DNA of 55,106 nt, taken from positions 1-55,106 of the forward strand of contig CAYIZE010000001.1 in the NCBI GenBank assembly GCA_964367785.1, read 5' to 3'. The translations under genes and the position numbers were made by a program. Below the pieces are notes generated by a model, which saw only the letters and a list, made by a program, of their open reading frames with translations, had not been told where the DNA came from and made no database searches. Below, piece by piece: positions 17,635 to 55,106 of this stretch. Each line of letters opens with the position of its first letter. Positions within the stretch are counted from its first letter, which is position 1. The stretch is from an uncultured Christensenella sp. (GTDB lineage: Bacteria > Bacillota > Clostridia > Christensenellales > UBA1242).

Positions 17635-17638
17635 TAGC

Positions 17639-17667: not shown

Positions 17668-17673
17668 AACTTT

Positions 17674-20600: not shown

Positions 20601-21267
20601 TGTTTCCACTCTTAATAAAGTCATTAACAATTTCTAGCCTCTTAACTGCTTTAAGTTTTTTCTGTCCTTTTGACGTTTTAACAATCTCTTTAAGTTCTGC
20701 ATAATCTTTTTCCAAATTCACTTCGCCTAAAAGTTGTTTGATTGCTTCAGCGCCCATTCCTGCTTTAAAGCCGTTTGCACCAAATTCTTCCACTGCATCA
20801 CGATATTCTTTGTCGGAAATAACTTGTTTGTATGTGAAAGAAGTTGCTTTTGGATCAAGAACAACATAATTAACATAGTAAAGAACTTGTTCCAAAGTTT
20901 TTGGAGTAATGTCAAGCAAAACGCCAATCCTTGAAGGAATTCCACGGAAAAACCAAATGTGACTAACAGGGGTTGCAAGTTCAATATGCCCCATTCTCTC
21001 TCTACGGACTTTGGAAGTTGTAACTTCCACACCGCATTTATCACAAATCACGCCTTTATAGCGAATTCTCTTATATTTTCCACAGTGACATTCCCAATTT
21101 TTTCTAGGCCCAAAAATTCTCTCGCAAAAAAGCCCATCTCTTTCTGGCTTTAAAGTACGATAGTTAATTGTTTCGGGTTTTGTCACTTCGCCATAACTCC
21201 ATTCCCTAATTTTTTCAGGTGAAGCAATGCCAATTTTCATAGAGTCAAAATTATTGAGTTCAAACAT
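17674..21267 (-). CDS. rpoC: DNA-directed RNA polymerase subunit beta'
   Basis: 1197 aa. It has the zinc-binding [23 protein letters not shown] and the catalytic NADFDGDQM, plus typical beta' blocks throughout. Confidence 0.98.
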
Positions 21268-25042: not shown

Positions 25043-25239
25043 TTTGACTCCTATAAAAAATTTTTTCTAGCTAAATTGTTCAAATTGATTTTTAGTTTAG
25101 CAAACAAAAAATCATGTTTAATAACTCAATTTTTACATTATTTTAAATTAAATTATCAAACATAATTTCTCAATTCTATTAATTCCCTCTCTAAACACAA
25201 AAATAAACCCGCATAATTTAGCAGTCTAAGATGATTTTG

Positions 25240-25268
25240 AGTTTATCACAATCATATTTTTTAGTCAA
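25240..25268 (-). promoter_or_regulatory. Candidate rpoB promoter (TTGACT-17-TAAACT, extended -10 TGA)
   Basis: On the minus strand, TTGACT (25268-25263) is followed by a 17-nt spacer ending in TGA and then TAAACT (25245-25240). This leaves a leader of about 190 nt before the rpoB ATG. Confidence 0.35.
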
Positions 25269-25437
25269 TAGTTTTTTAAATTTTATTTTATTTTTTTTAA
25301 ATTTCATAATTTTTTTAATAATTGTATCATTTTTTTTATATAATTTATAAAAATTTTTATCTACAAAAATTATAAGCTTAAAAGATAATTGAAAAATGGA
25401 AAGACAGGAACTTCATTTTGAACCTCCTATCTCTTCA

Positions 25438-28400
25438 TTAATCTCGAATTACTGTCACATAACATGTCACAATGTCAACTCCGTCTGCAACTGTTATAAA
25501 AGTTGACAAGTCATAGCCATTATCTGGAGTTGTGCCAAGTTCCATTTCAAAATATTCATATGTGAGAACATTATCGACAATTTTCACCACAGCGATTCCA
25601 ATCTTATCTCCTTCTTCGAAGGCATCTTGCTCATAGGTTACTGTGTTTTCATTAAGAGACGAGATGTAAAGTCCTGGATTTGTTGAATTGATGAGAGGAT
25701 TATCAATCGGAGAGTTTGCTTTTAAAGTTATTTCTCCGCAACTCATCAAGAAAATTCTCTTGTCTTTTAAAGTTTGATTACTATTACTCCAAAATTCTGA
25801 TTTAAATATTCCGCTGTCGCTTATTGTTGACATTTCTGTCAAGAAAATTTCTTCCAATTCATCTATTATTTCACAACTCGAATCATAGTGTCCCACACTT
25901 ATTGAAAAACCTGTTCCCTCTGTGGAATAGACATTTTCGCTATCAACTTCGCCTAAGTTAAAAATCTTTTGCTCGGCTTTACCAATGATCGCTCCCATAT
26001 TTAAGTCCTGATTTTGTGAATTTGCACGAGTATTTCCGACACTCACACAATATTCCAAACTCCCGCTATATGTCCAGCCAACAATTCCGCCAACATATGA
26101 CCAAATATTTTCGTTTGTAGTGTCTCTGCCTGTTGCTTGACGAGATTCAATGTATCCATCACTAAAATAGCAATTAGAAAGTCTGCTTTCGAAGGAATAT
26201 CCCACTATTCCACCAACAACGTCATATTTTGAAGAATATGTCTTCACGTTTCCTTTGTTGTGTGAGGCATTAATGGAAAATGAAACTCCATATCCCACAA
26301 TTCCGCCGGCATAGACATTTGAAGAATTGGAAGTGGAAACTCCTGCCAAATTCGTTTCATTATCAGCATATTCCACCACAAAATCATCACCAGTTGTGCT
26401 ATAGCCTGAAAGATAACCAGCCACACCGCCAACATAGACAAGTCCACTACTGCAAACTGCCAAAATATCAACAGTGTCTTTTTTAATCACACCTAAAGAA
26501 CCATTAACTTCTTCTGCAACCATATTTTCATAACTTCCAAGGTCAACCGTCGAACCTGTTCTATAGACATGAACATTTTTTATTTCATAACCTATTGAGC
26601 CTGTGTAGAGACCAACAATTCCACCCACATATGTTCCCGCTTTTGATAAGCCAACGATATTTGTGGAAACACTGATATTTTTGATGATTGTATTCTCTGC
26701 AAATCCAACAACTGTGCCGACATAAATTTTAGAAGTTGTGCTTTCGCTCTTAACTTTTATAAAGGCTTTGTCGATATATCCGTTTAATATTTGAGCGTTT
26801 GAAGTGTAGCCAAATAGTCCACCATAACTCAAATTTGAAGTATCAATCCTCAGCCCTGATATAACATGCCCGTTGAAATTAAATATTCCACGGAATGAAT
26901 TTATTGAAGAATTGCCGATTGGCGTCCAATATTTTCCACTCAAATCAATGTCATTAACAAGCAAAAATTCGCAATTTAATGAGGAAAACATTCCACTATT
27001 TACATTTGTTGCAAGCCATGAAAGTTCTTCTGCAGTGGAAATGAGATAAATTGTTTTAATTGAAGTTGTGGTGTTGTCGCTACCAAAACTCACAAGTGTT
27101 TGAGAGACTCCCAAATCCTCAATGTCTTCTAAAATTTTATGCTTTGTTGCTAAAATAGCAGTTGCGTTATTCAAATTATAATTATAACTCAAAAGAGAAT
27201 CACTTTCTGTATTCTTCCAATTTTGTCCTAATCCACGGAGAGATGGATATATGCTGAAAGCATCTTCGTGCAGGCTATATTCTTTTGTCCAGATGTCACT
27301 CAGTTCATATCCGTCCACAGTTAAGTTTTCAAAAATAGGATTTAATGTTGTTGCAACAACAGAACTTGTTGGCTCGTCAAGATAAAAGAGTTTTGGCGAA
27401 CATGTGCTGTAAGTCGTGGAAGAATCTGCAACCGTTGGAGACAGGTTGAAGACATTAAGTAAAGAGCAATTTTCTTCCACTTTCCCGACAACAAGAATTC
27501 CATCATCAACTCCACTCACGGCTTCTTTTCGAGAAATCACTGCGTTTTCGCCATTATATGAGTTGTCTAAAATTGCATTTTGAATTTTTGCAACAATTCC
27601 GCCAACGATTTGCGTTTCTGCTCCTGACAAACTGCCCGACACGTCAACATTGTTATAACTATATTTCAAACTGCAAGTTGAATTGCTGTTAGATTCATCA
27701 TTAATCATTTGATAGATAAGTCCGCCTGCACCTTTAAGCCCTTCCACTTTTGACTGCACGCTGTCGCCTTTTTCGGTGAAAACTTTGCTGACAGCACTAT
27801 TCTCCACGCTGTATGCAACGCCTCCTGCATAATCCACATTTTTGATTATGACTGACTCTAAGCCAAAGTTTGTGACAACAGCGTCTTGCACAAATCCAAA
27901 CAAACCACCATACAATTTGTTACTTAAAACGTTGCCGTCAATAGTTAAGTTTTTAATGACATAGCCGTCTCCATCAAATGTGCCACTAAATGGATAATCT
28001 TTTGTTCCAATCGGTGTCCAATATTTGTTTGCAAGATCAATCTGTTTTTTCAGTTTGAAAGTCACATTTTTAGTTGTTATATAGCCGTTATTTATTTGAT
28101 CAGCAATATAGGCAAGTTGCTCTGCACTTTCGATTATAAAAATCTTATTCACACTTGTGACTTCGCTGGATTTATCCACCCACAAAGTTTTAATGTCGTT
28201 TTGTTTTAATGTTGGATACCATGTATCAAACTCTTGCCCCCAAATGTTTGAAAAATCCCAGTCTATAAAGGAAATTGTCTTATCTTTTAAATCAGTTGAA
28301 ATTTGTGAATCGCAGAACGTAATAATGTCATCAGTTGCTTTATATGAATCTGTTGATATGTCATATGAAGTCATTCCAAAGTAGTTTGTGTTTCCGCTAG

Positions 28401-31400
28401 ATGCCGAGCCTCTTAGGTAATAGTTCCTCATATATATGCTTTGCGTATCATCTGTTTCGTCCAAGTAGCCAGTATATATATAATCGTCCACTGCAACAAT
28501 AGCCCCAAGTGCATTCTTCGATTCATTAATAGATTGAACGCTTATCTTTCCAATGTTTAAACAATTTGAAATGTTCAAATAATTAATTTCGACCGCACTA
28601 ATTGCTTTGCCAGCAATTCCACCGACAAAGATATTACTTGTGCTATCAGCAGTTATATCACCCGAATTGTAGCAGTTCAGTATTGAGAGAGATGTGTCAA
28701 GATTTATAAGCCCGACGACACCAGCAATAGTCATATATGTGCTTGAATCAGAAGACGAAAGATTGATGTTATCCATACTATATGACTCAGAAACACTGCT
28801 AGAAGTCTTTGCAACAACTCCCGCCACCGCAATTTCTGCCAAAGTTGCCCGTCTACAATTAAAGTCAATCTGCCCTGCGCCACTTGCAAGAGTTAATTCT
28901 TTTGAAGAATAGCCAACAACGCCACCCACATAGCAATATGCACTAGAAATGGTTTCGTCTTTACAGGAATTTTCATATGAAATTGTGAAAGTGGAATCAT
29001 TTTTAAAGTTTGAAATACTTGTTACGCTTGATGTATCCTCAACGATATAGCCTGTGACTCCTCCCACATAAACTTTGTGTGCGTTAGTTGTGAGAATAAT
29101 GTTTCCATAATTTGCATTCTCTCCACCAAATGAGGTGAAACTTGACATTCCAACAAGACCACCCACAAACACAGAAACCTTGTTTGAACTTAGTGCTGTG
29201 TAGTTATTTAATTTGTTATTTAACAATAATTTTCCATAATTTTTATTGTTTGTAAACGTTGACAATTTCAAGATTTTTCCATCTAAAATATCCTGTACAG
29301 TCAAAACGTTAAGTTTGCCAACAATTCCGCCCATATAAAGTTCTGGGTCTGAACTAGTTCTTGTGTTAACAACTTTCACTTCACCATAGTTTTTGCAATT
29401 TATAAATGAGGACTCTTCAACACCTTCAAGAGAATAATTCACGCCAACAATTCCGCCTGCATTTTCCGTTGCAACGATTGTGTTTCTGTTTTCAACATTT
29501 GAAATGATGCTGTTTGTTGCAATTCCTGCCACACCACCAGTATTCACACCATAGAACTCACCACCAATGACGATGAAATTTTGAAGAGAGGCATTTTCCA
29601 CTTTTCCAAAGAGTCCTGCATATGTTGGAAGAGTGTTTGACAAAGTATTTGTAGAAGAATAGAGTGAATTTTCATTCACAGAAGCATATTTTATGGAGAA
29701 AAGTGAAGTTGTATTTATTCCTTTGAAAGTTCCTTTAAAAGGTGTTTCATCTGTGCCAATAGGCACCCAATATTTTCCGCTTAAGTCAATATCTTTTAAG
29801 AGACGAACTTCTACCCCATCATAATTTTGCCCCAAGACGTTGACACTATATGCCAAAGCCGCCAAATCTTCGGCAGAATCAATATCTGTAATCGTCTGAT
29901 TGCCTCCAACAAATGGAGTTATGAAACTGCTCCAAACATATATGTCAGCAAGTTCCTCGTTTGTTGGGAATTTTGAATTTACGGAATATGTTAATGAGAA
30001 GAAATTGTTGTCAAAACTCCAATAGCCATTTTCAAAAGCGTGATAAATAACTTTTTTAGAAGACACATTTAAGGAATATGTCGTTGTTACATTGATTGTT
30101 GTGCTTGATAAATTCACAAACACATCAAAAGCAGTGGAAGATGCTGGGGCAACATTTTCACACAAATAGTTCAGTGTCACATTTTCGGCATAGAACCATT
30201 TTGTTGAACCAGTCATATATGATTTGATTATAAAAGATAAACTTGTGATTATTCTGCCATCAGGCAATGTTAAATTTACATTAGAATACTTATATTCTAT
30301 GCTTGTGAAAGTGTCTTCAAGTTCAAGGCTTTCGTCCACATCTCCCAAAATCGCAGTGTCAAGAGGAATTGTGATGCCATTAACTGAGATTGAAGTTTGA
30401 GTCTTGAAATCTAAAAGCGTGTTGAATGAATAGCCATCAGCACCCTTTTGGCTTGTTGGGTCTATTCCAAAGAAAACTATATTATTATTTTCTGTTAAAT
30501 AATTTGTTGAATATTGAAAATTATCTATGACAGGAGTGGAAACATAATAGAACATTTCATTAGCATTTCCCTGAATTATCGAATTATATGAGTCTTCTGT
30601 TCCAATGGAAACATATGTGTCACTTCCCTCGGCATCAGTTATTTTTTGATAAAATTTTCCAAAATGATTTTTATACCACGAGTAAGTTCTATCCAAAGTT
30701 GTTGCCGTCCACGTTCCGTCTATTTCTTTGAAAAACTGACCGTCATTTGTTATACTTGTTGGACTTGAAGATGTTACTGAGTAAACATATTCCATATAGA
30801 CATCACCCTCTGTGGAAGTGCCTGCTAATGTGTTTGTTTCCATCTTAATTCTATAATATGTGCTGGATAAATTAACTTCATTATAAAAAGATGAGGTTGC
30901 ATAAGGATAGACACTTTGATTTCCATTTTCATCAGTTAAAGTTATTGGGTCAACTGTTATAACTGAGTTGTATGAATCTATAGTTTTTGAAGTGTAAATT
31001 GGTTTTATATATTTATTCACGCTTGTTGTGTTTGTTTTATAAAGTGTGTTTGAATAAAAACTTTGAGATGAAAATTCAACAAATTCATTCATTCTGGCAA
31101 CGACATCAGTGCCAACAAATGCACAAGAAACTAAGCCTATAAATCCGCCGACACTTCCAACTTTTTTCAAAATTGAATCATAATAATCATAGTCCATAAA
31201 CAGCCAGTTTGTTGCCGAAACACAATTTTTAATCACAGTTACTTTTTCATTTTCTTCCACCGTTGAATTTGCAATAAAATCTGCATAAGTTTGTTTTGTT
31301 GTTTCAGTTGCAAGATATTGCACTTTAATGATAGCGTTTGCATTATATCCGCCCTCATTCACAATCGTGTAGACATCATTTATCGTGCCAATGAGTCCAC

Positions 31401-34400
31401 CCATAATGCTTTTTGCCACGACAGAGCCTCCTGTCACGACATAATCCAGCGTTCCTTCAAGCATTCTTCCAACAGCGCCACCTGCGATTGTGGCACGTTT
31501 ATTTCTCACATTAATTGAACAAATACTATTACTTATCGTTCCACCATTATTTATGCCGACAAGTCCGCCAACTGCAATGGTGACATAACGAGAACTATTA
31601 TAGAAAAAGTTATATTCTGTATTGAAAGAATAGCCGACATATACTGTGGTATTATCTTCCTCTTCATAATTTATGGAAGAACTAATGATTGTCCCTCTAT
31701 TTTCCCCCACTAGTCCACCTGCATAGGAGACTGCTTTTATGTAAGAAGATTGGGCATAAGTTACAGTGGTGTTCACATAGTTAACAATGGCATTTTGTCC
31801 CACGAGTCCAAAGGCAGAGCCAACAATGCTTCCTATGTAGGAATTTCTTCCAAGAACAATAATATTTGTTGCATTATAATTCTTTTGAGTGGAATCATCG
31901 ACAACAGCTGCAACATCAAAAATCCCCACAACTCCACCAGAATATGAAACATAATCAACTTCTTCATCAGTTGTGTAGAGTATTTCATCAGTTAGAGTGT
32001 TTGAAATCTCAAACGTTGCATTCACACTCACATCACAAGTGATATCTTTGATTATAACTCTTCCTGTGGCAATGCCAGCCAATCCGCCCACAGCATTTTT
32101 TCCATAAATATATGAGGAGTTGTTGCCTATTCCGCTGATTTTAATATTATTCAAGAAAATCTTTTGATTAGAATTTTGACTCTCAACAACTGTTTGTTCA
32201 CCCGTTGTTTCATCTGTGACTGTATATGTGCTAGGTCCAATCCTGCCTGCCAAAGCACCCACAAATTTGTGTGCATTTGACAAGACTTGATCCACTTGTA
32301 GATTAAAGTTTGAAATGACAGTGTCAAAAGTTTCGTTACTGTTTAATTTATCGTCTGCCACTGTGGTTATCGAAGCAAATAGTCCAAAACTATCAACGTC
32401 AAATCCCTCCACAATGTTGCTGTTTAGATATGAAAGCGAGATGTTTAAAACAGTCATATAATTTCCTTGCAAAACGCCTTGAAATGAGGAATGAACTGTG
32501 GAGACAAAACTACTATTCAAATCAATGTCTTTTAAAATCCTATAAAATTTTTGAGAGGTATTTTTATTTAAAAGACTGTTAAAAGTGTTGTAATCATAAA
32601 TCAAATATGGGTTCGTGCGTGTGCCTTGGACATCTGACACTCCTGAAACATTTCCAGTGTAACTATAACTTGCATTTTCAAGAACTTTATATGTAATCTC
32701 AATAATTTCACCATTCTCATTATAATCTATGACAATTGTGTCGTTTGCACGGAAATTATCGTCGCTTGTGATACTTTCCTCACTTTCGGTTTCGACATCA
32801 AGAACTTGAATTTCCTCGTCGCCGGTTTCTGCGGAAATGAGTGTCGCATTTTCAATTCCCTGCGTTATATCATAGTATATCGTCATCTTTTCAAGGTCGC
32901 CTCTTTCTGCGAACTCATAGGTCAAAGTTTTTAAAGCATTATCAATCGTTATGGAATAAATTTCATACGTGGTTAGGTTTAAAACGTCCACTCCATAATA
33001 TGTTGTTTTTGTTTTATTGCTTGATATATTTTCAGTCGTTCCTGCATTAATTGTTTGGTTTGTGACATCGAAATAATTATATATAGAAGAATAATTTTTA
33101 GTTTTTCCAATATAATCACACATACTCACTGTGTTTATTAGCGTTGAAACAATGACAGGTTTACCTTCAATGATAACCCAAGTGTAGCCGTCGACAAAAT
33201 TATAGGTGTGTAAATTTGATGCAGTGGAGTCGACATAATTTGAAGTTGAATAGACAAGTGATAAATCGTAATTTGTGAAACTGGTGTGTGTGGCAAAATT
33301 ATCAAAACTTAACCCCACCGCTTTTTTATTGTCTGGTGTGTCAGACAATTTATTGCTATCTTCAATATAAAATCCTGTTTCTCTCCATGTTTCTGAACTT
33401 GTAAGATAGAAGCAATTATTGAGTGTTCCTTTCACTTCAATCCTTGGCTCAAACGACGAGGAAAGTGGCCCTGCAAATGGGAATGCCGTGGTGTTGTTAT
33501 CGTTTGGATTTTTATAACTTATTGAATAGCATCTTGAAATGACGCTACTCGCAAGGTCAACATAGAAAAATCCTGCCATAGAACTAGAAGAAGATGTTTT
33601 TATGTTTGAATAACAATCACTGATAGTTCCGCTGTTAGTGTAGATAAATCCACCAATGTCTCCGCCATAGGAAGCAAGTCCATTGCCAGTGTTTCTTATA
33701 TCTCTGTCAGAATCACTTCTAACACCCTGCGAATAGCATTCGTAAATGCTCCCCAAAGAGGAGTTTGAATAAGCGAAGCCCCCCATATTATCGCTCGACA
33801 AGTTGCCTACTGAACTTTCATCAAAAGAAGATGCAACAATTTTTCCTGAATTATTACACACAAATCCACCTGTCTGCCCATAGCAAATAAGAGAGAAATT
33901 CTCAACCTTTGAATTTGTGATATATCCCGTGGAAGAATTTGTGGCGACAAGTCCGCCATTTTTCTCTGTTTCAACAGAAGTTGAGTCGTCGCTTGTCGAA
34001 TCAATATCCAAATCGATACTAATTCCTCCCGTCACTTTGCAATTTGACAAAACTCCGTTATTAACACAAGTTATTCCTCCAAAGACAACCGTTTGGGTTT
34101 GATAGAAATTAATTTGAAGTGGGACTGAACTTGGAATAAGTTCACCCTCAACTACTTGAACTTTGTTTGTGTATAAGACGGTGGTGTTTATGATTATAGT
34201 ATCTTTTGAAACTTCACTAAACAAACCTAAGTTACACGCCTGCGTGGTGTTGCTTGAATAACTAAAACTTGAAATATATATGGTGTGGTTATTTCCGTCA
34301 AAAGAGGAGAAATTTGCAGAAAAAGGTGTGTAATTTGAAAGTTCAATGTCACTAACAAGTCGGTAATCATATCCCTCTTGCATATTCATAAAATCTTCTG

Positions 34401-42324: not shown

Positions 42325-42405
42325 ATTTCCCTTTTTGTCGTTTTCCTTTCCCATTATTAAAATCAATCCAGTCTATTCATCTATCTTATCAAAATCTTTC
42401 AATAA

Positions 42406-42435
42406 AAACTATCAAAATACTCTAAAATTTGTCAA
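42406..42435 (-). promoter_or_regulatory. Candidate promoter for the giant lipoprotein gene (TTGACA-18-TAGTTT, extended -10 TGA)
   Basis: On the minus strand, a consensus TTGACA (42435-42430) is followed by an 18-nt spacer ending in TGA and then TAGTTT (42411-42406). The -10 is weak. Confidence 0.3.
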
Positions 42436-42511
42436 AATTTTTCTCTTTTTTCACCACCATTTTTTAGGGCGTCCACCCTCGCCCGTTTTTCAGAAATAAG
42501 ACCAGTTATAT

Positions 42512-45500: not shown

Positions 45501-48500
45501 ATCGTGCCTGATTTCATATAACCCACGACACCGCCGACGTATTTTGCACCCGACAAAATAACATTATTAACATAAGAACTTAAGATATATCCGCCATCCA
45601 TATAACCAACTAATCCGCCCAAAGCCAAACCATTATTTGCCACTGTTTTATTTGTCACTTTTGAGCCACTAATAAGCGTGGTATATTCAGATTGTTCTGG
45701 TTCGACAGAAACTCCAGAGATAGTTCCATCCTTCCCAAGTTTACCCACAACACCGCCAACGATATTGCCTGTTTCACCACTAACACTATGAATTACTCTC
45801 ACTCCTGTGAGTGTGCCAGATTTTAAATAACCCACGACACCGCCAACAGCAGATGCTTTATCAAACACACTTACAGTTGAGCCTTCAACAGTAATGGATA
45901 AAGATTCAATAAGACTGTCAGACAAAGTAGTTTTTGTGCCTTTCACAATAAGTGATGCATTTGTTGACGTTTTAACTGCTAATCCATTAACTATTTTAGA
46001 TAGATCAAGTGTGTTTCCCTTTCCTAAATCAACCTTGCCAAACCAACCGCCCACTGCAAGTTCTCCACCTGAAACAGTGCATGCAATCTCGACATAATAT
46101 TCATCAGGCAAGTCATTTTCCACAAGCCCAATAGAACCTCCCACATAGGCAGGATGGAAAGATTGAAGTGTTGAAGTTGCAGTTGAACTTGCTCCAAAGA
46201 AAACGTTATCTCCAACATAAACATAATAAATTGTATTTAATGATGGAAGTCCAATATTTCCACCAATTTGAGCATTTGAACTAACTTTCCCGGCAATTCC
46301 ACCAGCACAACTCACATTGTCTGCACCAGATTCTGCAAAGCCATAAATTGTCACTTTAAAAAACGAATTTAGGAAAAATTCATTTTGACTGCCAACATAA
46401 CAAGTGCCTGAAATAACTCCATTATTGTCCATTTCACCCACAAGTCCGCCTGAAAATGACGATCCTGCAATAGACATAGTGCTGAGTAAATCTCCCCAAG
46501 CAAAACCTTGAGCTGTTAATATCGAAAGAGGGCTAAGTGTTGCTTTACAGAAATACATACCTGTATTATCTGTTGCATATCCAACAATTCCACCCGATCT
46601 CTTTGCTCCAGAAATACTTCCCGAACTAACAATGTATGGGCAAAGAGATGTGTTGTCTTGACTTATTTCACTTGCAAGAATTGCATCAGATGCAAATTTG
46701 CCAGCAGACCCAACAATCTCTACTAGATGAGGAGCGTAGAGATTTTCGACTGCTTTTGTGTTAAGATTAGCACCAACAGAACGTCCGATAATTCCGCCAG
46801 CATTACCAACTGCATTCACAGTGCCATAGTTTGCCACCCAGCCACGGACGTATCCCTCTGATAGAATAGCTCCATTAAGATAACTTCCAATACTTTCTTC
46901 ACTGCCGGAATAAATAAATGTTGATTGTTCTGCATAGCCAAGAATTCCGCCAGCATTTTCTCTGCCGAGGACAGGAGTGAAGTTAAATGCAAAGGAAATA
47001 ACTAGTTGCTCCTCTCCATTATAATTGTTAGGATCTCCTTTAAGACAAGCCCCAACCAATCCACCGGCAGTTCCTGCAGAAGAAATTCTTCCAGTTGACA
47101 AAGTAAAGAGACTTTGTGCTGTAATCCCGCTTGAAGTAAGCGTCACAGCATAACTTATCACTGCATTAAGTGTTAAATGTTGAGTTGTTTTAACAATTCC
47201 AATGATACCACCACAAGCACCTTGTCCAATAGTTGTTTTAAAGTCCATTTCATCTAGCACAAAATTGTCACTTGCCATTTGTTCTGGAGTTGTTGGATAG
47301 CAAAGTCCATCATCTGCTGTCCATTTATAATTAGGTATAGTTACATTAGACAAATATTCATTTATGCCATAACCCGCTGTTCTAATATCTAACCAACTTA
47401 AAGCGAAAGTGAACAAATTATTCATATTAATGGAGAAGCATTCCAAAAAGCTTGTGGATAACCCAAGGACTTCCTCACCGTCAATTTTAATTGCAATACT
47501 CCATTCACCAAGATATTTATCAACTGTGTTGCTAACCCATTTTCCAAGTTTAGTGAGCCAGTTTACATCTTCTACTATGCTTCCACCACTGCTTTCAGCA
47601 ACCTTGTTTGCTGCAAAAAGCATTCCCACGCCAGAGGCTGCCGTGCCTAAATTAATCACTCCTGCAAGTTCAGGATCTTCATTAATAATTTTATCATATT
47701 TAACTGTATCCATATGTTCATAATAACCAATAATTCCACCAGACGAATATCCAAGAATAATTCCAGTGACAGAGTTGATTATAATTCCATTATTGTTTTC
47801 CAAAAGGTAATCATCGATTGTTCCGCCATCAAAAATAATTTCTTTAAGCATTCCAACAAATTCTGAGATGACGTTAGCGTTTTGAAGACTAATTTCAGTG
47901 CTTATTGCACCTCCACGCATTAAGCCAACGATACCTCCTGCGATGCCCGATAGAGCATATACAGCGCTTTGATTAATCATAATTTTTGTGGATTTAAGAA
48001 CTCCACCAGCCATCACACCAATCATTCCGCCAGCCACACGAGACGCCATCATAAGCCCCACATTAGTGTTACAATCTTGAACCAAGCCGTTTTGAAGATA
48101 TCCCACAATTCCACCAAAGATGTATGGAGTGCTAAGGAATGTTTCAGCGGCAGTGAATAAATCAATTACTGACTTTGCAACTTCATCTTCATCTGAATTT
48201 CCCATATATTCTTCAAGTTTTTCTGTTAAAGTTGTTCTGTTGTTTCCACTAATGATAGAGATTGCAGACCAACTTCCAGTTTCGCAATTAATTATTTTTG
48301 TGTAATTTGAATATCCCACAATTCCACCAGCAAAAGAATTTAGTGGATATCCTAGGAATGAAGCAGATGCTTCACAATTACTAATTAAAATATGTTCATT
48401 TAAAGTTGCATCAGCAGAAAGCCCCACAATACCTCCAACAAATGTTGACAAAATACAGCCAATAATATCTGCATCTGTGACGCAATCCTTAATTGTCACA

Positions 48501-51500
48501 ACTGCACCGCTAACACTTGACGAAATTGAACTATACACATATCCAACAATTCCGCCCGCTTTCGATTCTTTCAAAGTAATATAGAAGTCTGCTTTAAGGA
48601 GCATATCAACTAAAGTTGTTGACTCTTTCACATAACTTGAATCATAACCAGCATAAATTGTTGAATGTGCATCAACATCTGCTCTAAGATCAAAAGTGGA
48701 CAAAGATTTGACATCTCCTGTGTTCTTAACATTGATAATGTTAACCTTTTTTGAACCATCAGTTTGTGTGACAATCACTTCGCCGACAATTCCGCCAGCA
48801 GAACTATTTGCTTCAATGCTTGCATTATTGAAAATGGTGTATTCTCCTTCGGTTGCACCTGAACCATTGAGTGTGCCATATTGCATCTTACCAACAATTC
48901 CGCCAGTAACACTATATCCATAAGAACTAAAAGTTCCTCCGATTGATTTACTAGTATATCCTGTTGTTTGACCATTGCTAGGCAAATCAGAATAGTTTGC
49001 ATCTATATTCAAGTCTTTTGGATAATATGTTAAAGTTCCAGACAACCAATTTTTATTTTTCCAATAACTATTCCAAAGGTCTTCAAAATTTGAAATTCCC
49101 TCTTCCCAATTTTCAACTAATCCTGGAAGAATCCAAGAAATGTGGTCTAAATTGAAATAGACGCTAGAAACAAATTTTGAATCTTGACTTTCCACCAAGT
49201 TGCCATTACTGTCTAAATAATAACCAGTGTTACAATTTGTCAATATCCCACCACGCATACGTCCAACTATTCCGCCAACAATGCTCGTTTTAACCGATCT
49301 AACTGTTGCACGTCCTGCTGAATAGCAATTATTAATTGTTGCAGTGTTGTTTGAAGATTGATAGAGATCTCCAACAATTCCGCCGAAAATAACTGAGTGA
49401 TAACCACCAAGATAAAGCACAACAACTTCAAAGTTTGCATTCTTTCCATAGGAGCAATCTTCAATAAGTCCCGATTTAAACTTGCCCGCAATTCCACCGA
49501 TGTAAATTTCATTAGCAATCAAATTTTTCATTGCTTCATTTTCATAAACAGAATTATTAGTTATAGTCGCTTTTCCAAATTCATTCTTACTAACAAGAAC
49601 TCCCGCAACATTGATGCCATCTTTAGCATCATACACGCAATTTGTGATTTTTCCACCTTCATTATAACCCACTAATCCACCTATTGTGTAGAAACCATAA
49701 AGACCAACTGAAGAGCCGTCTGTGACGGAAGCCACAGTAATGTATGACAATTCACCTGCAATTTTTATGTATGTTGAAAGGAGTCCCACCACACCACCAA
49801 TGTGTGAACTGGAAACAGGTCTACTAATAGCCTCGTTATTTTCATCTGTTAATATACCGTTGTCAAGGCATGAATAGACAGAAATTCCTTGAACTTTAAA
49901 TGATTCACTTTCCGTTCCATAAATTTTGCCACCAACCATAACACCAACAAGTCCGCCAGCATAACTCTCATCTGAATATATTCTGTCATTAACCATAACA
50001 AACAAGCCCATATATTCTGCGCCAACATATGTTGTTACACCTTCATTTATCACAGCAGTTGTGGAAATTTCACCACCTTCCATATAACCAATCAAGCCAC
50101 CCGCAAAAGCAACTTCGCTTCCCGAAACGCTTCTCCTGATTGTTTTGTCATTTGAATTTGTGAAGTTGACAAGCACTGATGAAATTCTCTCTTTATCTGT
50201 GAAAAGACCGTCAGTAAATGTTCCTGTTTGGACAATATTTGATAAGTCACCATTATAAATATAACTATTTCCACCAATAGTGCTTATGCTTGAGTCGACA
50301 TCTATTCCGCTCAAAACTCCGTTGCCCATATATCCAGCAACAAGTCCCGTCTGAGCATAACTTGCCGTGAAAGTGATGTCATGGACAGCAGTGTTTATTG
50401 TGTTTGTTCCAGAATTCACATTCTCAAGGTTTGGAAGTGCTCTTAAAAGTCCGTTTGAAGAATACATATTATAAACAACTTTTTCATTTCCGTCTAAGTC
50501 GCCCACAAAATATGCTGCTTTTTCGTCCAGATGTTTAGACCAATACATATCCCCAGAATATTTTTCAAAATTGATATCTTTTGTGAATATATAATATTTA
50601 TATTCAGGGGAATTTTTCAAATAGTTAATAAGAATATACATTTCAAGCATACCAGAATGCTTAATCATATAAGGCATATCAACAAAACTATTTGTTATCT
50701 CGTTTTCATTTGTGCTATCTGCAAGTCCGTTGCCTGTGTAAATCATATCAAAATAATCATCAAGTTCGCTTGCGAGGATAACATTCTTATAGTTCTTCGT
50801 CACATAAGCGTAGTTAAACCAAGTTGAATCAACTTTCAAAGTCTCTGAAGTATTTGATGTGTATTTTTCACTCTTTTTGAAAAGTGAAATAAGTTCTGAA
50901 TCGGTTGAAGTTGATGAAGATGAAGTATCTTCGTTTGGAATTATCCAATGCGATGAGAACATAGAATTCACATCAACATAACTTGTGTCTGTTCTTTCGC
51001 CCGACAAAGAATATGAATAGACATAGAAACCTTTGCTTTGAATACAATCAATGTTTTCGTTAGATAATAGAAGCACATTTGCATTCACTCCCTCTTGAGT
51101 TGCTCCAAATGAAGCAGGCAAATAGTCATAATATGTCCTATATATATTTTCGCTTGTGTCTCCTTCTTCCAAATATGCTATTGGAGCAATCTTTTTGTTC
51201 TCAGCATCAACATCTGCCATAGTGTAGCAGTTTGATATTGTGCCAAATTTACTGAATGCAGTGAAGCCAGAGAAATAACTGTCTGAACCTCCACCTGCAA
51301 CGCTCCTAACCTCTCCTGTGAAGTATGTGTTATAGATATTTCCCAGTTTATCTGAATTAACTTTACCATTGTAAAGAACTATTCCTGCTCCAGACGAAGC
51401 AGTTATTGTTGCAACACTAAAACTTGTGTTAATCACACCATAATTTGTGTGAACAAGCCCCGCAAGTCCCTCTGTTCCAGTGATTGTTCCAGCAGTTCCG

Positions 51501-54500
51501 CAAGAGAACACAAATCCATAATTGTCTTTTGCTATTGGAGCGTAAGATGTCACTGCGTTTGCATTGCTTGAATTAAGCGTTGAAAACACAGCACAAACCG
51601 CAGAATTTTCAGTTATGGTTGAAAAGAGTGGGACATTTGTTCCAACAGCAGAGTAACCCTGCCCATTAAACATCCAACCCGTTGCAGTTGTTGTTATGGA
51701 AGTGTTAAGTTGAATATCACCTTTCAAAACATAATAAGAATCGTTTGCTAAAACAGTGCTTGCAACAAAAGTGATTGGATTAATCTTGCTTCCTAAAATG
51801 TAGTTAGAAACATTATTTATCTGCGTTGTCACGCCATTTCCTGTGAAATAGGAAGTGTGAAGTTTAGAGAAATATTCGTTGTTATATGTGGCTTCAAAGT
51901 TGTCAGATTTTATCATAATATCTTTATAGATACTTTGGAAAACTGCCATAAGTTCACTTTGAGAAACATTTGTAAATTCATCATTCACATATGTGTCACA
52001 GTTAACAAGCGAAATATTTTCGTTATAATATGTCTTTTTGTTATTTTTATGAGAAACAAGTGCATCAGTTGTTGTTGAATTATTAATGTTTTTTCTGCCA
52101 ACAACAGAACCGATGTTTAAGTTGAGTTTTTGTGAAATTGCATAATCCTTTATTGTGGACGCAACCAAAGTTGAGCCGTCAATCTCGCCACAAATGTATT
52201 TTGAATACATTCCCACTAAACCACCGATATAATAGTAGTAGTCCTCATCACTATCGCTATCAGTATAGAAATAACTGCCACTTAATGAGCCATTACCACG
52301 ATTAAGAGTAATGTCACCAAGGACAATAACATTTGAAGTGGAAACTGTCTCTGCTTTTCCAACAGCGCCGCCAACATACATTACTTTCTCTTGATCACAA
52401 ACAATGTCCATAGTGGTCAAAACTTTATTGAGTGTGATTGTTGAAGCATTGCTACCTTGAACTCCACCTGTAATTCCACCCACAGCAATCATAGTTGTGG
52501 CATAGTTTCCATTTGTTTTAACTCTTGAAACATTCAAATAATCTGCATCGTTAATGACATTCACAAAACTGCAACTCTTACTTAAAACAGCCACAATTCC
52601 GCCGACATAAAGTGATTCACAATAATCAGCCTGAACGTTAATACTCATATTTGTATAGACGTTGTTAAGTTCACTTGCCAAGTTGTCACCAAGCACGCCA
52701 CCAACATAAACGTTTGAATCGCTACTGCCAAGATAAACATTCAAAGTTTCACTTGAAGAGTTTACTGATGATTGTTTTATTGTCAAATTGATAATGTTAT
52801 ATCTGTTTTGTCCAACAACACCAGCAATAGAAGCCTTACCCTGAACATAAACGTTCATAACAAGGTCTTCAATTTCCACTCCTTCGATGCTTCCAGTCAC
52901 TCTTGTTCCGCTGTCCACTGTCACATATTCACCTGCTGCTCCCACCAAGCCACCAACAAATATTCCACCAGAGCCACTGTTTGTGGTTAATAGTTTTCTT
53001 TGTGCTGTGCCAACATTAACTGTCACATCTTCTGCAAAAATTGACTCCATTGAACCCTGCATTCTGCCCACAGCGCCACCAGCATAGAAAATGTCAAAGT
53101 CGCCGTTTGTTGAGTCAACAGCATAGTTAGTCGTTATTGTAACATTAGATGATGTGAACATCTTTGTCATATTTCCAATACAATTTCCAACAAATGCACC
53201 CACATATTTTGTTTTGTATGCAGTTGCTGAAGAATAGATAACAGAAGTATTTAAAGTTGTGCTACAACTTGCAATGTTAAGAATTGAGGTTTCACTCGCA
53301 GCAACAAATTGACCCACGCATGAAGCATTTGTCACCATTCCTGTTGAATTTAATCTATTTTCTATTGAAACATATTCGCCCGCAAGCACTGTAATTGATG
53401 TGCGAGGAATAACATTTAGTCCCTCGGTGATTAGACTGTCAGTGGCATATGAAAGATCATAAGTATATGTCAAAACCGAACCAACCGTCTCTTCTTTTGT
53501 GAAGGTAAAGAAATATTTAAAGTGAAGATCTCTTGCTGAAGTTGAAGTAGAAACTTCGCTTAAAGGATTTAATGTGGCAAGTTGCAAGAATGCATTGCTA
53601 TAATCATCAACATTGTTGAGTTCATTAGTCCTCACACCTCTTGTCACATAATGAGTCTTACCATTCAAAACTTGAGAAGTTGAAGAAATATCTTCGGACA
53701 CAACATCATTTAACGAACTATAAATATTTACATCTGTTATTGTTGTGTTTATTGCATTTGCAACAAGTATTGATGCCTTTGTTTCAGTTTTCACAGTCGC
53801 AGAGAAAACTGCACTATAACTTGAAACAACGAAATTAAGGTTGGAAATTGTTGCGTCCACAGTTGTCTGGAATATTGCAAAATCACTTGTCAAGTCGCTT
53901 CCCGAAAGAGTGATGTTAAACAATATAGGATATCTAGAATATTCCTCCCCATTTTCAACAATGGTCACAGCGTTTCCAGATAGCGTCCCACGGAAAGGCT
54001 CTGTGAACACAGAAAGGTCAACCCCTGTGAAATCAATGTCATTCATAATAATATATTTCTTTGACAAAGTGTCAGGTGAAGAGAGTTCATCAATGAACTG
54101 CTGGGCTGTATAAATTCTAACAAGAGAAGATTCATAACCATATTTAAGCAAAGGCAAAAGATTTTCATCAGAATAATCCCAAGTGCTTTCCAACCAATTA
54201 TCTGGTGAGAAGTAGATGTCTCTTAAAGAAGAATTTCTCAAATTGTTTCCAAGCAAGTCTTGCACTTTGTTTGGATAAATCAAATTATTTCCATCATTTT
54301 CACAAAGAATATTACTTAAATAATCGTCAAAGTTTTTATTTTCATTCACACCCCAAAGTTGAATATAATGAACTATTTCAGTTTCATCTTCATCAACAGT
54401 AACAAGTTGTCTTAAATCAAAACTTGCGTCGCTGATGTCTGCATCTGAAATACAATCATAATCAAAACTATCCAAAATGAGATTTTGAACATAGTTTCCA

Positions 54501-55106
54501 TCATTCACGCTGACAATTCCCAATTCTCCTTCAACTTCACCGGAGTTTTCATATTTGCCATACAAAGCACCGATGACGTTATTTTCGCCACTTTGATAAG
54601 TATAATCAAACAAGTCATCAAAATCATCTGTATCCCAAATGTTGAGAGCCACCGCATAACTCAAATTGAGTTGATAGGATTGGCTATCACTTGCTGAAGC
54701 ACTGGTTTCAACTTCTTGGAAATATTCTCCTGTGCTTTCTTCAAAAATTCTGCCGATAATTCCGCCGATGTAAATTTGTTCAGTGCTATCAAGGTCAGCC
54801 ATTAAACTTGCAGTTGTATAGACATTTTTAATTTCGCCGACATAACTTGCTCCAACAATTCCACCCACAGAAATTGCAAGTTCATTTTTAACATCAACTC
54901 TATTATAACTATCAAGAATTCTTCCTGAGCCTGATGTCTCGCTTCCAGCGTTTATTCCCACAAGTCCGCCAATATAAGTTGGAGAGCCGTCTGAGAACAG
55001 AGTTTTGTTCACACTGCTTGCATTTTCTCCGCCTGAGACAAAAGATATAATGCTTAAATTTGAAGCATCTAAATCATCGCTATTAAAAGTCACAGATGTT
55101 TTACTG
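42512..55106 (-). CDS. Giant (at least 4197 aa) GLUG-repeat beta-helix protein; 5' end lies beyond the window
   Basis: The track begins it at a GTG (55093), but the frame has no stop up to the window edge (...SKTS precede it), so the N-terminus is missing. It ends at TAA 42514-42512. Dense GGxxG repeats run from about 50450 to about 43500. The C-terminal ~330 aa are non-repetitive. Confidence 0.85.
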   Translation of the reverse strand, partial: SKTSVTFNSDDLDASNLSIISFVSGGENASSVNKTLFSDGSPTYIGGLVGINAGSETSGSGRILDSYNRVDVKNELAISVGGIVGASYVGEIKNVYTTASLMADLDSTEQIYIGGIIGRIFEESTGEYFQEVETSASASDSQSYQLNLSYAVALNIWDTDDFDDLFDYTYQSGENNVIGALYGKYENSGEVEGELGIVSVNDGNYVQNLILDSFDYDCISDADISDASFDLRQLVTVDEDETEIVHYIQLWGVNENKNFDDYLSNILCENDGNNLIYPNKVQDLLGNNLRNSSLRDIYFSPDNWLESTWDYSDENLLPLLKYGYESSLVRIYTAQQFIDELSSPDTLSKKYIIMNDIDFTGVDLSVFTEPFRGTLSGNAVTIVENGEEYSRYPILFNITLSGSDLTSDFAIFQTTVDATISNLNFVVSSYSAVFSATVKTETKASILVANAINTTITDVNIYSSLNDVVSEDISSTSQVLNGKTHYVTRGVRTNELNNVDDYSNAFLQLATLNPLSEVSTSTSARDLHFKYFFTFTKEETVGSVLTYTYDLSYATDSLITEGLNVIPRTSITVLAGEYVSIENRLNSTGMVTNASCVGQFVAASETSILNIASCSTTLNTSVIYSSATAYKTKYVGAFVGNCIGNMTKMFTSSNVTITTNYAVDSTNGDFDIFYAGGAVGRMQGSMESIFAEDVTVNVGTAQRKLLTTNSGSGGIFVGGLVGAAGEYVTVDSGTRVTGSIEGVEIEDLVMNVYVQGKASIAGVVGQNRYNIINLTIKQSSVNSSSETLNVYLGSSDSNVYVGGVLGDNLASELNNVYTNMSINVQADYCESLYVGGIVAVLSKSCSFVNVINDADYLNVSRVKTNGNYATTMIAVGGITGGVQGSNASTITLNKVLTTMDIVCDQEKVMYVGGAVGKAETVSTSNVIVLGDITLNRGNGSLSGSYFYTDSDSDEDYYYYIGGLVGMYSKYICGEIDGSTLVASTIKDYAISQKLNLNIGSVVGRKNINNSTTTDALVSHKNNKKTYYNENISLVNCDTYVNDEFTNVSQSELMAVFQSIYKDIMIKSDNFEATYNNEYFSKLHTSYFTGNGVTTQINNVSNYILGSKINPITFVASTVLANDSYYVLKGDIQLNTSITTTATGWMFNGQGYSAVGTNVPLFSTITENSAVCAVFSTLNSSNANAVTSYAPIAKDNYGFVFSCGTAGTITGTEGLAGLVHTNYGVINTSFSVATITASSGAGIVLYNGKVNSDKLGNIYNTYFTGEVRSVAGGGSDSYFSGFTAFSKFGTISNCYTMADVDAENKKIAPIAYLEEGDTSENIYRTYYDYLPASFGATQEGVNANVLLLSNENIDCIQSKGFYVYSYSLSGERTDTSYVDVNSMFSSHWIIPNEDTSSSSTSTDSELISLFKKSEKYTSNTSETLKVDSTWFNYAYVTKNYKNVILASELDDYFDMIYTGNGLADSTNENEITNSFVDMPYMIKHSGMLEMYILINYLKNSPEYKYYIFTKDINFEKYSGDMYWSKHLDEKAAYFVGDLDGNEKVVYNMYSSNGLLRALPNLENVNSGTNTINTAVHDITFTASYAQTGLVAGYMGNGVLSGIDVDSSISTIGGNSYIYNGDLSNIVQTGTFTDGLFTDKERISSVLVNFTNSNDKTIRRSVSGSEVAFAGGLIGYMEGGEISTTAVINEGVTTYVGAEYMGLFVMVNDRIYSDESYAGGLVGVMVGGKIYGTESESFKVQGISVYSCLDNGILTDENNEAISRPVSSSHIGGVVGLLSTYIKIAGELSYITVASVTDGSSVGLYGFYTIGGLVGYNEGGKITNCVYDAKDGINVAGVLVSKNEFGKATITNNSVYENEAMKNLIANEIYIGGIAGKFKSGLIEDCSYGKNANFEVVVLYLGGYHSVIFGGIVGDLYQSSNNTATINNCYSAGRATVRSVKTSIVGGIVGRMRGGILTNCNTGYYLDSNGNLVESQDSKFVSSVYFNLDHISWILPGLVENWEEGISNFEDLWNSYWKNKNWLSGTLTYYPKDLNIDANYSDLPSNGQTTGYTSKSIGGTFSSYGYSVTGGIVGKMQYGTLNGSGATEGEYTIFNNASIEANSSAGGIVGEVIVTQTDGSKKVNIINVKNTGDVKSLSTFDLRADVDAHSTIYAGYDSSYVKESTTLVDMLLKADFYITLKESKAGGIVGYVYSSISSSVSGAVVTIKDCVTDADIIGCILSTFVGGIVGLSADATLNEHILISNCEASASFLGYPLNSFAGGIVGYSNYTKIINCETGSWSAISIISGNNRTTLTEKLEEYMGNSDEDEVAKSVIDLFTAAETFLSTPYIFGGIVGYLQNGLVQDCNTNVGLMMASRVAGGMIGVMAGGVLKSTKIMINQSAVYALSGIAGGIVGLMRGGAISTEISLQNANVISEFVGMLKEIIFDGGTIDDYLLENNNGIIINSVTGIILGYSSGGIIGYYEHMDTVKYDKIINEDPELAGVINLGTAASGVGMLFAANKVAESSGGSIVEDVNWLTKLGKWVSNTVDKYLGEWSIAIKIDGEEVLGLSTSFLECFSINMNNLFTFALSWLDIRTAGYGINEYLSNVTIPNYKWTADDGLCYPTTPEQMASDNFVLDEMDFKTTIGQGACGGIIGIVKTTQHLTLNAVISYAVTLTSSGITAQSLFTLSTGRISSAGTAGGLVGACLKGDPNNYNGEEQLVISFAFNFTPVLGRENAGGILGYAEQSTFIYSGSEESIGSYLNGAILSEGYVRGWVANYGTVNAVGNAGGIIGRSVGANLNTKAVENLYAPHLVEIVGSAGKFASDAILASEISQDNTSLCPYIVSSGSISGAKRSGGIVGYATDNTGMYFCKATLSPLSILTAQGFAWGDLLSTMSIAGSSFSGGLVGEMDNNGVISGTCYVGSQNEFFLNSFFKVTIYGFAESGADNVSCAGGIAGKVSSNAQIGGNIGLPSLNTIYYVYVGDNVFFGASSTATSTLQSFHPAYVGGSIGLVENDLPDEYYVEIACTVSGGELAVGGWFGKVDLGKGNTLDLSKIVNGLAVKTSTNASLIVKGTKTTLSDSLIESLSITVEGSTVSVFDKASAVGGVVGYLKSGTLTGVRVIHSVSGETGNIVGGVVGKLGKDGTISGVSVEPEQSEYTTLISGSKVTNKTVANNGLALGGLVGYMDGGYILSSYVNNVILSGAKYVGGVVGYMKSGTIGSSSLVVEGGEVGTATYGGGVVGYLEGTDCIFERVISKGVNVTEQAKAVITEGADTAGGFVGYMNGGTFNFNLSESSGMYFYYYDLNIVKGKYVAGGLVGEMAGGLIENGDVSDIIIATGTESNGDNIIALGGLVGKMTGGVINGGIVPTTLSGNNIGGIVGWMTSRETTDSNGADITTTGTINGGTVGVIIATGDNSYAGGYVGRMDAGTINSASKTENSRVANNINSNSVSLGGVVGILTGGTINSAVDPVSVIASGSLDSVYGGGVVGELTVSSESDLDDENRNLYNFEIAELQTNVSGVYYGGGLIGKASDGIISSVAKSGSVVTAKYAGGVIGYVNGAEKQSVIINVSEIKNITLNGTTAVGGVIGFAKDSQVVLNKSAISVNGVLTATDSQNYIGGLVGVSVNTRIGPFGYDEENEDVPNTNINLDTISTTVSLKDLTITTNAGSIIGGVVGQMQGGSVFAIKLGESTDASLSISDEIFMFGGIVGYNTSFGTGSDEKSGIIYGCENKFEILLNSTADNAVLGGICGFNDSYIYNSKNSASITSDFDGIGGIAGKNLGSIFYCTNGTSSGEQITLTASNKSMLGGIVGISADEGKVTTDCTNSATLSLGGHSSSLYIDSSSWESSPSLNYINLMTGDTTEYDSPTEFSNVYSGAVGGIAGKISGTSYVSGTNTGIISGYYYYGFNETQQSTVHFSDSDELVNTYEIVDRRGNIAGLNENSEEDGAKAINEAVEFGTLGTWTTDVGGAAVKVVSWADRQDELEGDSKEAQVGYVIEVAVTTTGCVPTYDTEGQITGYEYNSISNLPTYYNLMAVANSSTSLNGWESVKSNYEAIQSSASIIQDIASLGLSASSGTLIYLGEQAALYSNKIVSLEVQGASVGSSNSVSYSPPAGDGITKIETTFKVYKVITSYYDGKYETSAIQDCGGDVSFARNIYTKLNYMTDLSSKSIILEKLYELDNVTTSEDVGNFEWDKGFVPMGVLFLYNVNAI
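43500..50450 (-). repeat. Near-continuous GLUG-like repeat array (about 2300 aa, protein level) in the upstream giant ORF
   Basis: An example run reads GGVVGYLKSGTLTG...VGGVVGKLGKDGTISG...LGGLVGYMDGGYI...YVGGVVGYMKSGTI...GGGVVGYLEGTD...AGGFVGYMNGGT...AGGLVGEMAGGLI...LGGLVGKMTGGVI...IGGIVGWMT. On the plus strand this appears as recurring CC(A/G)CC(A/C)AC strings. Confidence 0.65.

Follow-up and report, generated by a model that had tools for sequence, protein, structure and literature searches.

Two giant tandem genes upstream of rpoBC in an uncultured Christensenella sp. encode candidate surface proteins with predicted GLUG-type beta-helix modules

The 55,106-nucleotide stretch of DNA analysed here (positions 1 to 55,106 of contig CAYIZE010000001.1, assembly GCA_964367785.1, from an uncultured Christensenella sp.; hereafter the window) is dominated by two giant co-directional genes, A and B, which lie in tandem on the minus strand ahead of rpoB. 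Together they span 25438-55106, or 53.8% of the window, in agreement with an initial annotation made from the letters alone, which had described two such frames filling about 54% of it.

42512..55106, minus strand: giant gene A, at least 4,197 codons, its frame open at the right window edge and its stop at 42512-42514.
42325..42511, minus strand: A-B spacer of 187 nucleotides (nt), with a hairpin, a promoter-like site, an AT-rich block and an AGGGA Shine-Dalgarno sequence.
25438..42324, minus strand: giant gene B, 5,628 codons plus stop.

The frame of A covers 42512..55093 (4,193 amino acids, aa) when read from a GTG codon and stays open to base 55105, which gives 4,197 aa; residues of A are numbered here from the codon at 55105-55103. 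The frame of B covers 25438..42366 (5,642 aa) from a TTG codon, or 5,628 aa from the ATG at 42324 (MKRVF...), and this Met is common to all four orthologues, behind a conserved AGGGA Shine-Dalgarno sequence. Because the orthologues share this start, the gap between the genes is 187 nt, and the 145 nt given by the initial annotation holds only for the upstream TTG. Both products are rich in Asn, Ser, Thr, Gly and Tyr and poor in Cys, as had been remarked from the translations (A: G 11.9, S 11.3, T 8.3, N 7.8, Y 5.7 and C 1.0%; B: S 11.6, N 9.4, T 8.9, G 7.4, Y 6.4 and C 0.9%). The motif GG[ILVAF][VIA]G (the strict motif), which was said to recur in both proteins every 20-30 residues, is found 48 times in A against 0.57 copies expected from shuffled sequences (shuffle maximum 3) and 23 times in B against 0.12 (shuffle maximum 2), an enrichment of 80-190 fold. 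The period is wider than was supposed: copies lie at least 26 residues apart, with a median of 34 where they are most crowded (A 3085-3905) and of 43 across A 1660-3905. Copies in B are limited to four clusters (1373-1578, 3413-3726, 4263-4568 and 5234-5412), and about two-thirds of the protein is without any copy. B is not a plain motif array; instead it is made of six capped modules parted by about 3,000 residues of unique sequence.

Alignments of B orthologues gave a module grammar in which a cap, with the consensus 'I.t.eEf..m....Y.L..DIDL....w.P....F.G.fdGNgh.I', is followed by 'GLF...' and then by coils with the consensus GG(L/I/V/F)VG-x3-G-x-I-x-N-(C/S)-Y. A hidden Markov model (HMM) of the cap, iterated on the giant proteins, found five strong caps in B at residues 2641, 3247, 4161, 4743 and 5107 (E 1e-17 to 4e-30), and a sixth near residue 1190 is interrupted. 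The six modules make up about 45% of B.

42256..42324, minus strand: B residues 1-23, signal peptide, a predicted lipoprotein signal reading MKRVFYGFILIFLLSCCFSLVG and then C.
38785..42255, minus strand: B residues 24-1180, N-terminal spacer of unique sequence with no PDB or Pfam match.
37225..38784, minus strand: B module 1, residues 1181-1700, capped GLUG, Pfam Glug 34.2 bits, five strict motifs.
34420..37224, minus strand: B residues 1701-2635, unique spacer with a sub-threshold Big_2-like stretch at 1823-1868.
33355..34419, minus strand: B module 2, residues 2636-2990, variant coils (GGF.Y.N.G.I..CY), cap HMM E 4e-30, the best-modelled beta-helix.
31045..32604, minus strand: B module 3, residues 3241-3760, capped GLUG, cap HMM E 1e-17, seven strict motifs.
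28465..29859, minus strand: B module 4, residues 4156-4620, capped GLUG, cap HMM E 1.6e-18, six strict motifs.
27025..28104, minus strand: B module 5, residues 4741-5100, capped, strict motif absent, cap HMM E 2.2e-23.
25975..27024, minus strand: B module 6, residues 5101-5450, capped GLUG, cap HMM E 1.8e-21, Pfam Glug 35.9 bits, five strict motifs.

The non-module stretches (24-1180, 1701-2635, 2991-3240, 3761-4155 and 5451-5628) gave no match in searches of Pfam, NCBIfam and PDB sequences, and more than half of B is dark in this sense. Comparison of the spacers B1-1180 and B1761-2630 by hhalign detected no homology between them, and an array of repeated immunoglobulin (Ig)-like domains in the spacers is unsupported by the sequence, the Big_2 matches being below threshold at 16-18 bits.

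The assignment to the GLUG family, which the initial annotation had made by eye for both proteins, holds for B and falls narrowly short of the Pfam threshold for A. The Pfam Glug model (PF07581, gathering score 20.5 bits) is matched by the tiles B1170-1760 (34.2 bits) and B5100-5628 (35.9 bits), with two stretches in each, and a profile of orthologues of B2620-3070, covering module 2, found seven PF07581-annotated proteins (P0039-P0045, E 3e-11 to 4.5e-5). A scored 17.3 bits as a whole protein and 20.0 bits on the tile A1440-2100, with nothing in its other tiles. The Glug matches in B appear only on tiles of 500-600 aa, two overlapping halves of the protein (2,875 and 2,953 aa) giving none, so routine annotation of very long proteins can miss the motif. 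Next to nothing was found when A as a whole, and B cut into pieces of 2,875-5,000 aa, were scanned against Pfam, NCBIfam and PDB sequences, NCBIfam returned nothing on either protein even when they were tiled, and profile searches of PDB sequences with alignments of module 2, B1-1180, B1761-2630, module 1 and module 6 gave no credible match.

Structure prediction points to the fold of these modules. An AlphaFold2 (AF2) model of B2601-3800, made with a 14-row alignment, resolved short strands in module 2 with a predicted local distance difference test (pLDDT) score of 70-95 over B2640-2970 and in module 3 with 55-90 over B3240-3650, while the spacer between them was not predicted. Nearly all matches of this model in a Foldseek search of the PDB were right-handed parallel beta-helices, including PL6 alginate lyases, a beta-1,3-glucanase, pectate lyases, Ag43, the P22 and HK620 tailspikes, PfbA and IgA1 proteases, the last with probabilities of 0.82-0.97 (6xja 0.97, 7uvk and 7jgj 0.87). 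In the BFVD library, uncharacterised proteins of giant viruses matched best (1.5e-6), ahead of members of the pectate-lyase superfamily and tail proteins. On these models, a GLUG-type beta-helix is a well supported prediction for the modules of B.

The same matches bear on whether the modules could instead be lyase, hydrolase or depolymerase domains, carried on a giant scaffold for feeding on complex glycans. The best PDB E-values are those of the PL6 alginate lyases, beta-1,3-glucanase and pectate lyases, the viral library adds members of the pectate-lyase superfamily and tail proteins, and beta-helices are common enzyme scaffolds (PMC9637739). However, these E-values are weak and indicate fold class only, and the highest Foldseek probabilities belong to the non-catalytic beta-helix of the IgA1 proteases, whose NTD2 domain has this fold (PMC9637739). 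No Pfam or NCBIfam match to the pectate-lyase, GH28, PL or Beta_helix families was found, even with tiles at E <= 1, and conservation within the modules falls on the Gly, Asn and hydrophobic positions that give the coils their structure. We consider carbohydrate-active enzymes a rather improbable explanation of the two genes.

A shares the module grammar of B, including an array of about 2,400 residues.

54701..55105, minus strand: A residues 1-135, an uncapped run of three GLUG-type coils, without a signal peptide.
52076..54118, minus strand: A residues 330-1010, capped GLUG-type module with four strict motifs.
43391..50698, minus strand: A residues 1470-3905, long GLUG-type array with 41 strict motifs, densest at 3085-3905.
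42515..43390, minus strand: A residues 3906-4197, C-terminal region of about 290 residues without repeats, with no LPxTG and no membrane segment.

The cap that begins near residue 344 of A reads 'KKYIIMNDIDFTG...FRGTLSGNAVTI' (cap HMM E 1e-10), and weak caps lie near residues 1116 and 1494, the latter reading 'YKYYIFTKDINFE...' at 1494-1553; the long array then continues without any further recognisable cap. Forty-one units of A match a repeat HMM with the consensus SSYAGGIVGYMTGGTINNSVSGSNV. Modelling of A gave an all-beta core with pLDDT 50-90 over approximately A3087-3597, and, on the basis of motif and module grammar, A is probably also a GLUG-type beta-helix protein. The proposal that both are beta-helix proteins is supported for the modules of B, but the model of A is weak (mean pLDDT 48). 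Residues 1-135, which also match the B profile at positions 3573-3640, are uncapped and without a signal peptide, which suggests that A begins further upstream. A database protein of 4,193 aa (P0001), whose call begins with the GTG at 55093, matches A at 100% identity; the NCBI contig that carries it has 60,584 nt and exceeds the window by 5.5 kb. This GTG lies inside the run of GLUG coils, without a Shine-Dalgarno sequence or a signal peptide, and the true 5' end of A may lie upstream of the window, or a stop or frameshift may divide the gene.

A one-genome-per-species scan identified three loci related to the A-B region, and a metagenome scan a fourth. The closest, L004, on the 100-kb Joint Genome Institute (JGI) contig Ga0247841_10000512, has the same gene order as the window, with an A orthologue of at least 3,288 aa in the part read (71% identical over 3,312 aligned columns), a B orthologue of 5,615 aa (77% identity) and an rpoB with 93.5% identity. 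In L001, a metagenome-assembled genome (MAG) labelled 'uncultured Christensenella sp.', a B orthologue of 5,625 aa with 61% identity fills the contig, and in L003, an Oscillospiraceae MAG, an A-like open reading frame (ORF) of at least 2,647 aa is followed by a B-like lipoprotein ORF of at least 3,749 aa at 35%. The more distant L002, a Firmicutes MAG, encodes a 3,503-aa lipoprotein that is collinear with the B profile at two places, and its gene lies directly upstream of rpoB (62% identical) and rpoC (66%). In the window, the corresponding genes are the following.

21305..25042, minus strand: rpoB, directly downstream of B after a 395-nt spacer.
17674-21267, minus strand: rpoC.

The A-B pair thus recurs in two other assemblies (L004 and L003), and a giant lipoprotein gene precedes rpoB in the window (21305-25437), in L004 (26849-30943) and in L002 (13235-16973), a place usually occupied by rplJ-rplL. 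Since both the tandem pairing and the position ahead of rpoB recur in relatives, they are conserved traits of a small family and not oddities of this contig; the initial annotation had called both unusual. Directly upstream of the giant lipoprotein gene of L002 (L002:42-2693, plus strand) is a gene for an 884-aa protein with an N-terminal membrane segment and a P-loop ATPase domain of the TraG/VirB4/HerA type (PF19044, E 2.5e-19), which could be a dedicated export or assembly ATPase or a mere mobile-element neighbour.

Both genes are under purifying selection. Nei-Gojobori ratios of nonsynonymous to synonymous substitution rates (dN/dS) against L004 are 0.12 for B, 0.19 for A and 0.05 for rpoB, values that are approximate because dS is near saturation, and the identity of B to L004 is even along its length, at 65-86% per 150-residue window. 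Both genes are real and have been conserved by vertical descent. Mis-assembly, chimerism or pseudogene decay might be suspected, as the contig is of metagenome type, the window edge truncates A and its GTG start call is odd, but B has 5,615-5,628 aa and no stops in three independent assemblies, A lies upstream of it in two, and dN/dS is well below 1. The giant ORFs contain no tandem DNA repeats: only direct repeats of 30-40 nt were found, overlapping the motif codons and mostly 60-80% identical to the reference copy, and BLASTP of A and B returned zero self-matches and one weak match between the two proteins. The repeats are ancient and degenerate, with no near-identical copies, and therefore collapse or expansion during assembly is not a concern; we reject assembly collapse and chimerism, regard artefact as refuted for B, and give it a negligible probability overall. 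The single weak BLASTP match also leads us to reject a recent tandem duplication as the origin of A and B. Three findings had been named beforehand as fatal to the initial annotation, and none of them was made: the orthologues have no stops, Glug and beta-helix predictions are present, and no characterised close homologue was found.

The family is very rare. A HMMER search with the last 1,200 residues of A against 1.84 billion representative sequences gave 31 matches at E <= 1e-3, and only two below 1e-30, namely P0001 itself and one 330-aa fragment. Word-indexed protein searches, in which 8,000 candidates were scored, found no homologues with B1-1200, which is weak evidence of absence at that depth, and one partial protein with B2601-3800 (P0033, from a Clostridia MAG, 48% identical).

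The N-terminus of B has the features of a lipoprotein signal, with an n-region MKR, an h-region FYGFILIFLLSCCFS and a lipobox LVG-C23 that matches the pattern [LVI][ASTVI][GAS]C. L001 (LVGC), L003 (LIGC), L004 (LCGC) and L002 (FVAC) all retain this Cys in a context that resembles a lipobox. A signal of this kind predicts Sec export, lipidation of Cys23 by the Lgt/LspA pathway and tethering to the outer face of the membrane, and by its sequence B is predicted to be a membrane-tethered lipoprotein. This agrees with the earlier proposal of one lipid-anchored partner and one without a recognisable C-terminal anchor, no such anchor being found in A; the only hydrophobic segment in either protein is the signal peptide of B. 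LPxT[GAS], NPxTG and C-terminal hydrophobic segments are absent from A, B and their orthologues, and a sortase-anchored adhesin is rejected on these grounds. HExxH is absent from A and B, and neither has a Pfam match to G5 or Peptidase_M26, so an M26 protease is rejected as well. Pfam also found no SLH, CWB2, choline-binding, LysM or similar wall-binding repeats in either protein. The motif and Pfam searches thus bear out what had been read by eye, that HExxH, LPxTG, SLH and choline-binding repeats are lacking and that no obvious catalytic motif is present, enzyme, toxin and anchor motifs all having been sought in both proteins and not found.

Long, beta-helical and extracellular proteins with non-repeat C-termini (A 3906-4197 and B 5451-5628) could also be stalks of the CdiA/TpsA type, delivering a C-terminal toxin in contact-dependent antagonism, and there are weak Foldseek matches to EtpA, Hbp and VacA. 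However, the C-termini are not swapped cassettes. That of A, where the AF2 pLDDT is below 35, is 58-59% identical to L004 and not hypervariable, and the last 78 residues of B are 66% identical to L004. No immunity-sized ORF follows either gene, as A is followed by B and B by rpoB, and two-partner secretion (TPS), FHA, PT-VENN, Rhs and toxin domains were not found. We therefore reject a polymorphic toxin, and hold delivery of a toxin by either protein to be highly improbable.

A further alternative is a structural envelope, in which A and B would surround the cell as a coat, sheath or S-layer-like matrix that shields it from phage, host factors or predators, and would not be specific adhesins. 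In favour of this are the great size of both proteins, purifying selection that is spread evenly along their length and not focused on a tip domain, the conserved position beside rpoB, and the predicted membrane tether of one chain but not of the other. Against this, Pfam detected none of the SLH, CWB2 or other S-layer and wall-binding domains, and the family is very rare, as judged from the 31 matches to the A C-terminal region. This alternative overlaps with an adhesive role, and no sequence feature tells the two apart; we consider it unlikely.

It is more likely than not that A and B are giant cell-surface fibres or adhesins assembled from GLUG-type right-handed parallel beta-helix modules, by analogy with other proteins of this fold. 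B would be exported by the Sec pathway, receive its lipid at Cys23 and stay on the outer face of the cytoplasmic membrane, and its N-terminal spacer of about 1,150 residues would carry the rod-like modules through and past the cell wall. If a coil adds 4.8 Å and takes up about 25-35 residues, a single module would form a rod of about 5-10 nm, and a whole chain of 100 nm or more is possible. A would be exported by an N-terminal signal encoded outside the window, and would then be non-covalently associated or released. With their long flat faces the beta-helices may bind glycans, proteins or other cells at many sites at once, and the pair would then make up surface fibres, adhesins or a matrix for aggregation. 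An adhesive role is suggested by the beta-helical adhesins among the Foldseek matches (PfbA, Ag43 and EtpA), by the GLUG proteins of gut archaea, which are proposed adhesins although the function of the motif is described as unknown (PMC9723798), and by the general association of giant Clostridia proteins with adhesion (bioRxiv 10.1101/2023.11.21.568195).

Several points weigh against giant surface fibres or adhesins. The function is assigned entirely by analogy. The best tile of A is just short of the Pfam Glug threshold (20.0 against 20.5 bits), and the AF2 model of A2998-4197 is poor, with a mean pLDDT of 48 and no significant Foldseek match. For the model of B, the Foldseek PDB E-values are 1.5e-3 or worse and the TM-scores are low, because the query was a two-module model of 1,200 residues with disordered parts. 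No fold can be recognised in about 55% of B or at the ends of A, where an activity could be hidden. The N-terminus of A, and with it any N-terminal export signal, lies beyond the window, and the database call for A begins at a GTG that looks internal and has neither a signal peptide nor a Shine-Dalgarno sequence.

A more specific version of the surface-fibre proposal, which we regard as doubtful, is that A and B form a clade-specific two-component fibre in which B is the lipid-anchored stalk and A, with its beta-helix of about 2,400 residues, is the partner, and that the spacers hold new folds and the fibre mediates a specific interaction between cells or with a host. The pair contains about 5,000 residues of unique spacer without a Pfam, NCBIfam or PDB match, and the spacers that were compared are dissimilar to each other. 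The array of A could be among the longest continuous beta-solenoids known, and the conserved place upstream of rpoBC could reflect co-regulation with growth.

Among known systems, the M26 IgA1 metalloproteases, through the NTD2 gating domain of the Streptococcus pneumoniae (6XJA/6XJB/7JGJ) and G. haemolysans (7UVK) enzymes, have the GLUG motif in common with A and B, above the Pfam threshold in B, and the predicted right-handed beta-helix is alike; these enzymes are surface proteins of Gram-positive-type bacteria. In contrast to them, A and B lack an M26 domain, HExxH, G5 and LPxTG, and have no sequence match to any PDB chain, even by profile. Each chain has six or more modules rather than one, the predicted anchor is an N-terminal lipid, and A and B are 3-4 times larger. 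With PfbA, the passengers of the Ag43/pertactin type, the TpsA proteins (FHA and EtpA) and the Candida Awp adhesins, the two proteins would share a parallel beta-helix rod that projects from the cell as an extended binding surface, and such adhesins are among the Foldseek matches (4mr0, 7koh, 8vbb and 7o9q). This likeness is one of fold class only, with weak E-values; unlike these adhesins, A and B have no autotransporter barrel, TPS domain or sortase signal, are not similar to them in sequence, and combine many modules with long unique spacers. Staphylococcus aureus Ebh and the RTX adhesins of type I secretion systems (T1SS), LapA, SiiE and MpIBP, are giant adhesins that repeat many near-identical Ig-like or helical units and bear RTX/T1SS or LPxTG signals. 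Like them, and like the giant Clostridia proteins, A and B are multi-thousand-residue, apparently extracellular chains with an inferred role in contact with surfaces or with other cells, but they are nearly without internal sequence repetition and carry none of these signals. The membrane-bound GLUG proteins of the gut methanogen Methanimicrococcus blatticola resemble A and B in motif and in proposed adhesive role, but are archaeal and are likened to them by motif alone (PMC9723798).

The spacers that flank B bear on its transcription. A GC hairpin lies just past the stop of A (42467-42484), without a T-tail on the coding strand; it is present in L001 and absent in L004. The A-B spacer also contains a promoter-like TTGACA-16-GATAGT, from 42435 to 42408. 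An AT-rich block of about 60 nt, together with the AGGGA, is kept in the window, in L004 (9869-10000) and in L001 (1-151), and its core, 'TTGAAAGATTTTGATAAGATAGA', is identical only in the window and L004. The 395-nt spacer between B and rpoB has several weak promoter-like sites and no terminator-like site. Co-transcription of A and B is possible, and so is read-through into rpoB.

All recognisable genes of the window are on the minus strand, and in order of transcription they are A, B, rpoB, rpoC, two small ORFs, rpsL, rpsG, fusA and tuf, then an isochorismatase-family gene, an AI-2E transporter gene, trpS, uvrC, a 364-aa ORF, murB, whiA and dnaE, of which the first 1,058 codons are in the window and the remainder is off its left edge. 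The GC content is 32-40% throughout, and an Rfam scan of the whole window gave zero matches. This is an ordinary chromosomal context of a low-GC Firmicute with peptidoglycan (MurB and WhiA), and the nearest public relatives carry the labels Christensenella sp., Oscillospiraceae and Clostridia MAGs. Between rpoC and rpsL, 1.1 kb of the minus strand (16552-17673) holds only small ORFs, of which one of 93 aa (16896-17177) has a sub-threshold match to a PHD_like antitoxin (18.6 bits) and one of 94 aa (17288-17572) has no match. The 364-aa ORF between uvrC and murB (5142-6236, minus strand) is without a Pfam match, and the gap between uvrC and trpS (8096-8884) is 0.8 kb without an ORF of at least 150 aa and with no T-box or other Rfam family at gathering thresholds.

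Giant surface proteins in the form of beta-helix rods are a familiar bacterial theme, and, with no characterised close homologue found, A and B are uncharacterised members of a familiar kind of protein but not unprecedented. What is new is the architecture of six capped modules with long unique spacers, the pairing of A with B, and their place upstream of rpoBC in a rarely sampled Clostridia lineage. As nothing points to a new mechanism, the value of the pair is mainly that of a catalogue entry and a structural-genomics target, with thousands of residues that have no recognisable fold. GLUG is a widespread motif whose function is described as unknown (PMC9723798), and A and B are extreme cases of it, with about 30 kb of coding sequence held under purifying selection over its whole length and paired in a barely sampled lineage of Clostridia. 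If they are indeed adhesins or a surface matrix, A and B would probably dominate how their hosts touch their surroundings.

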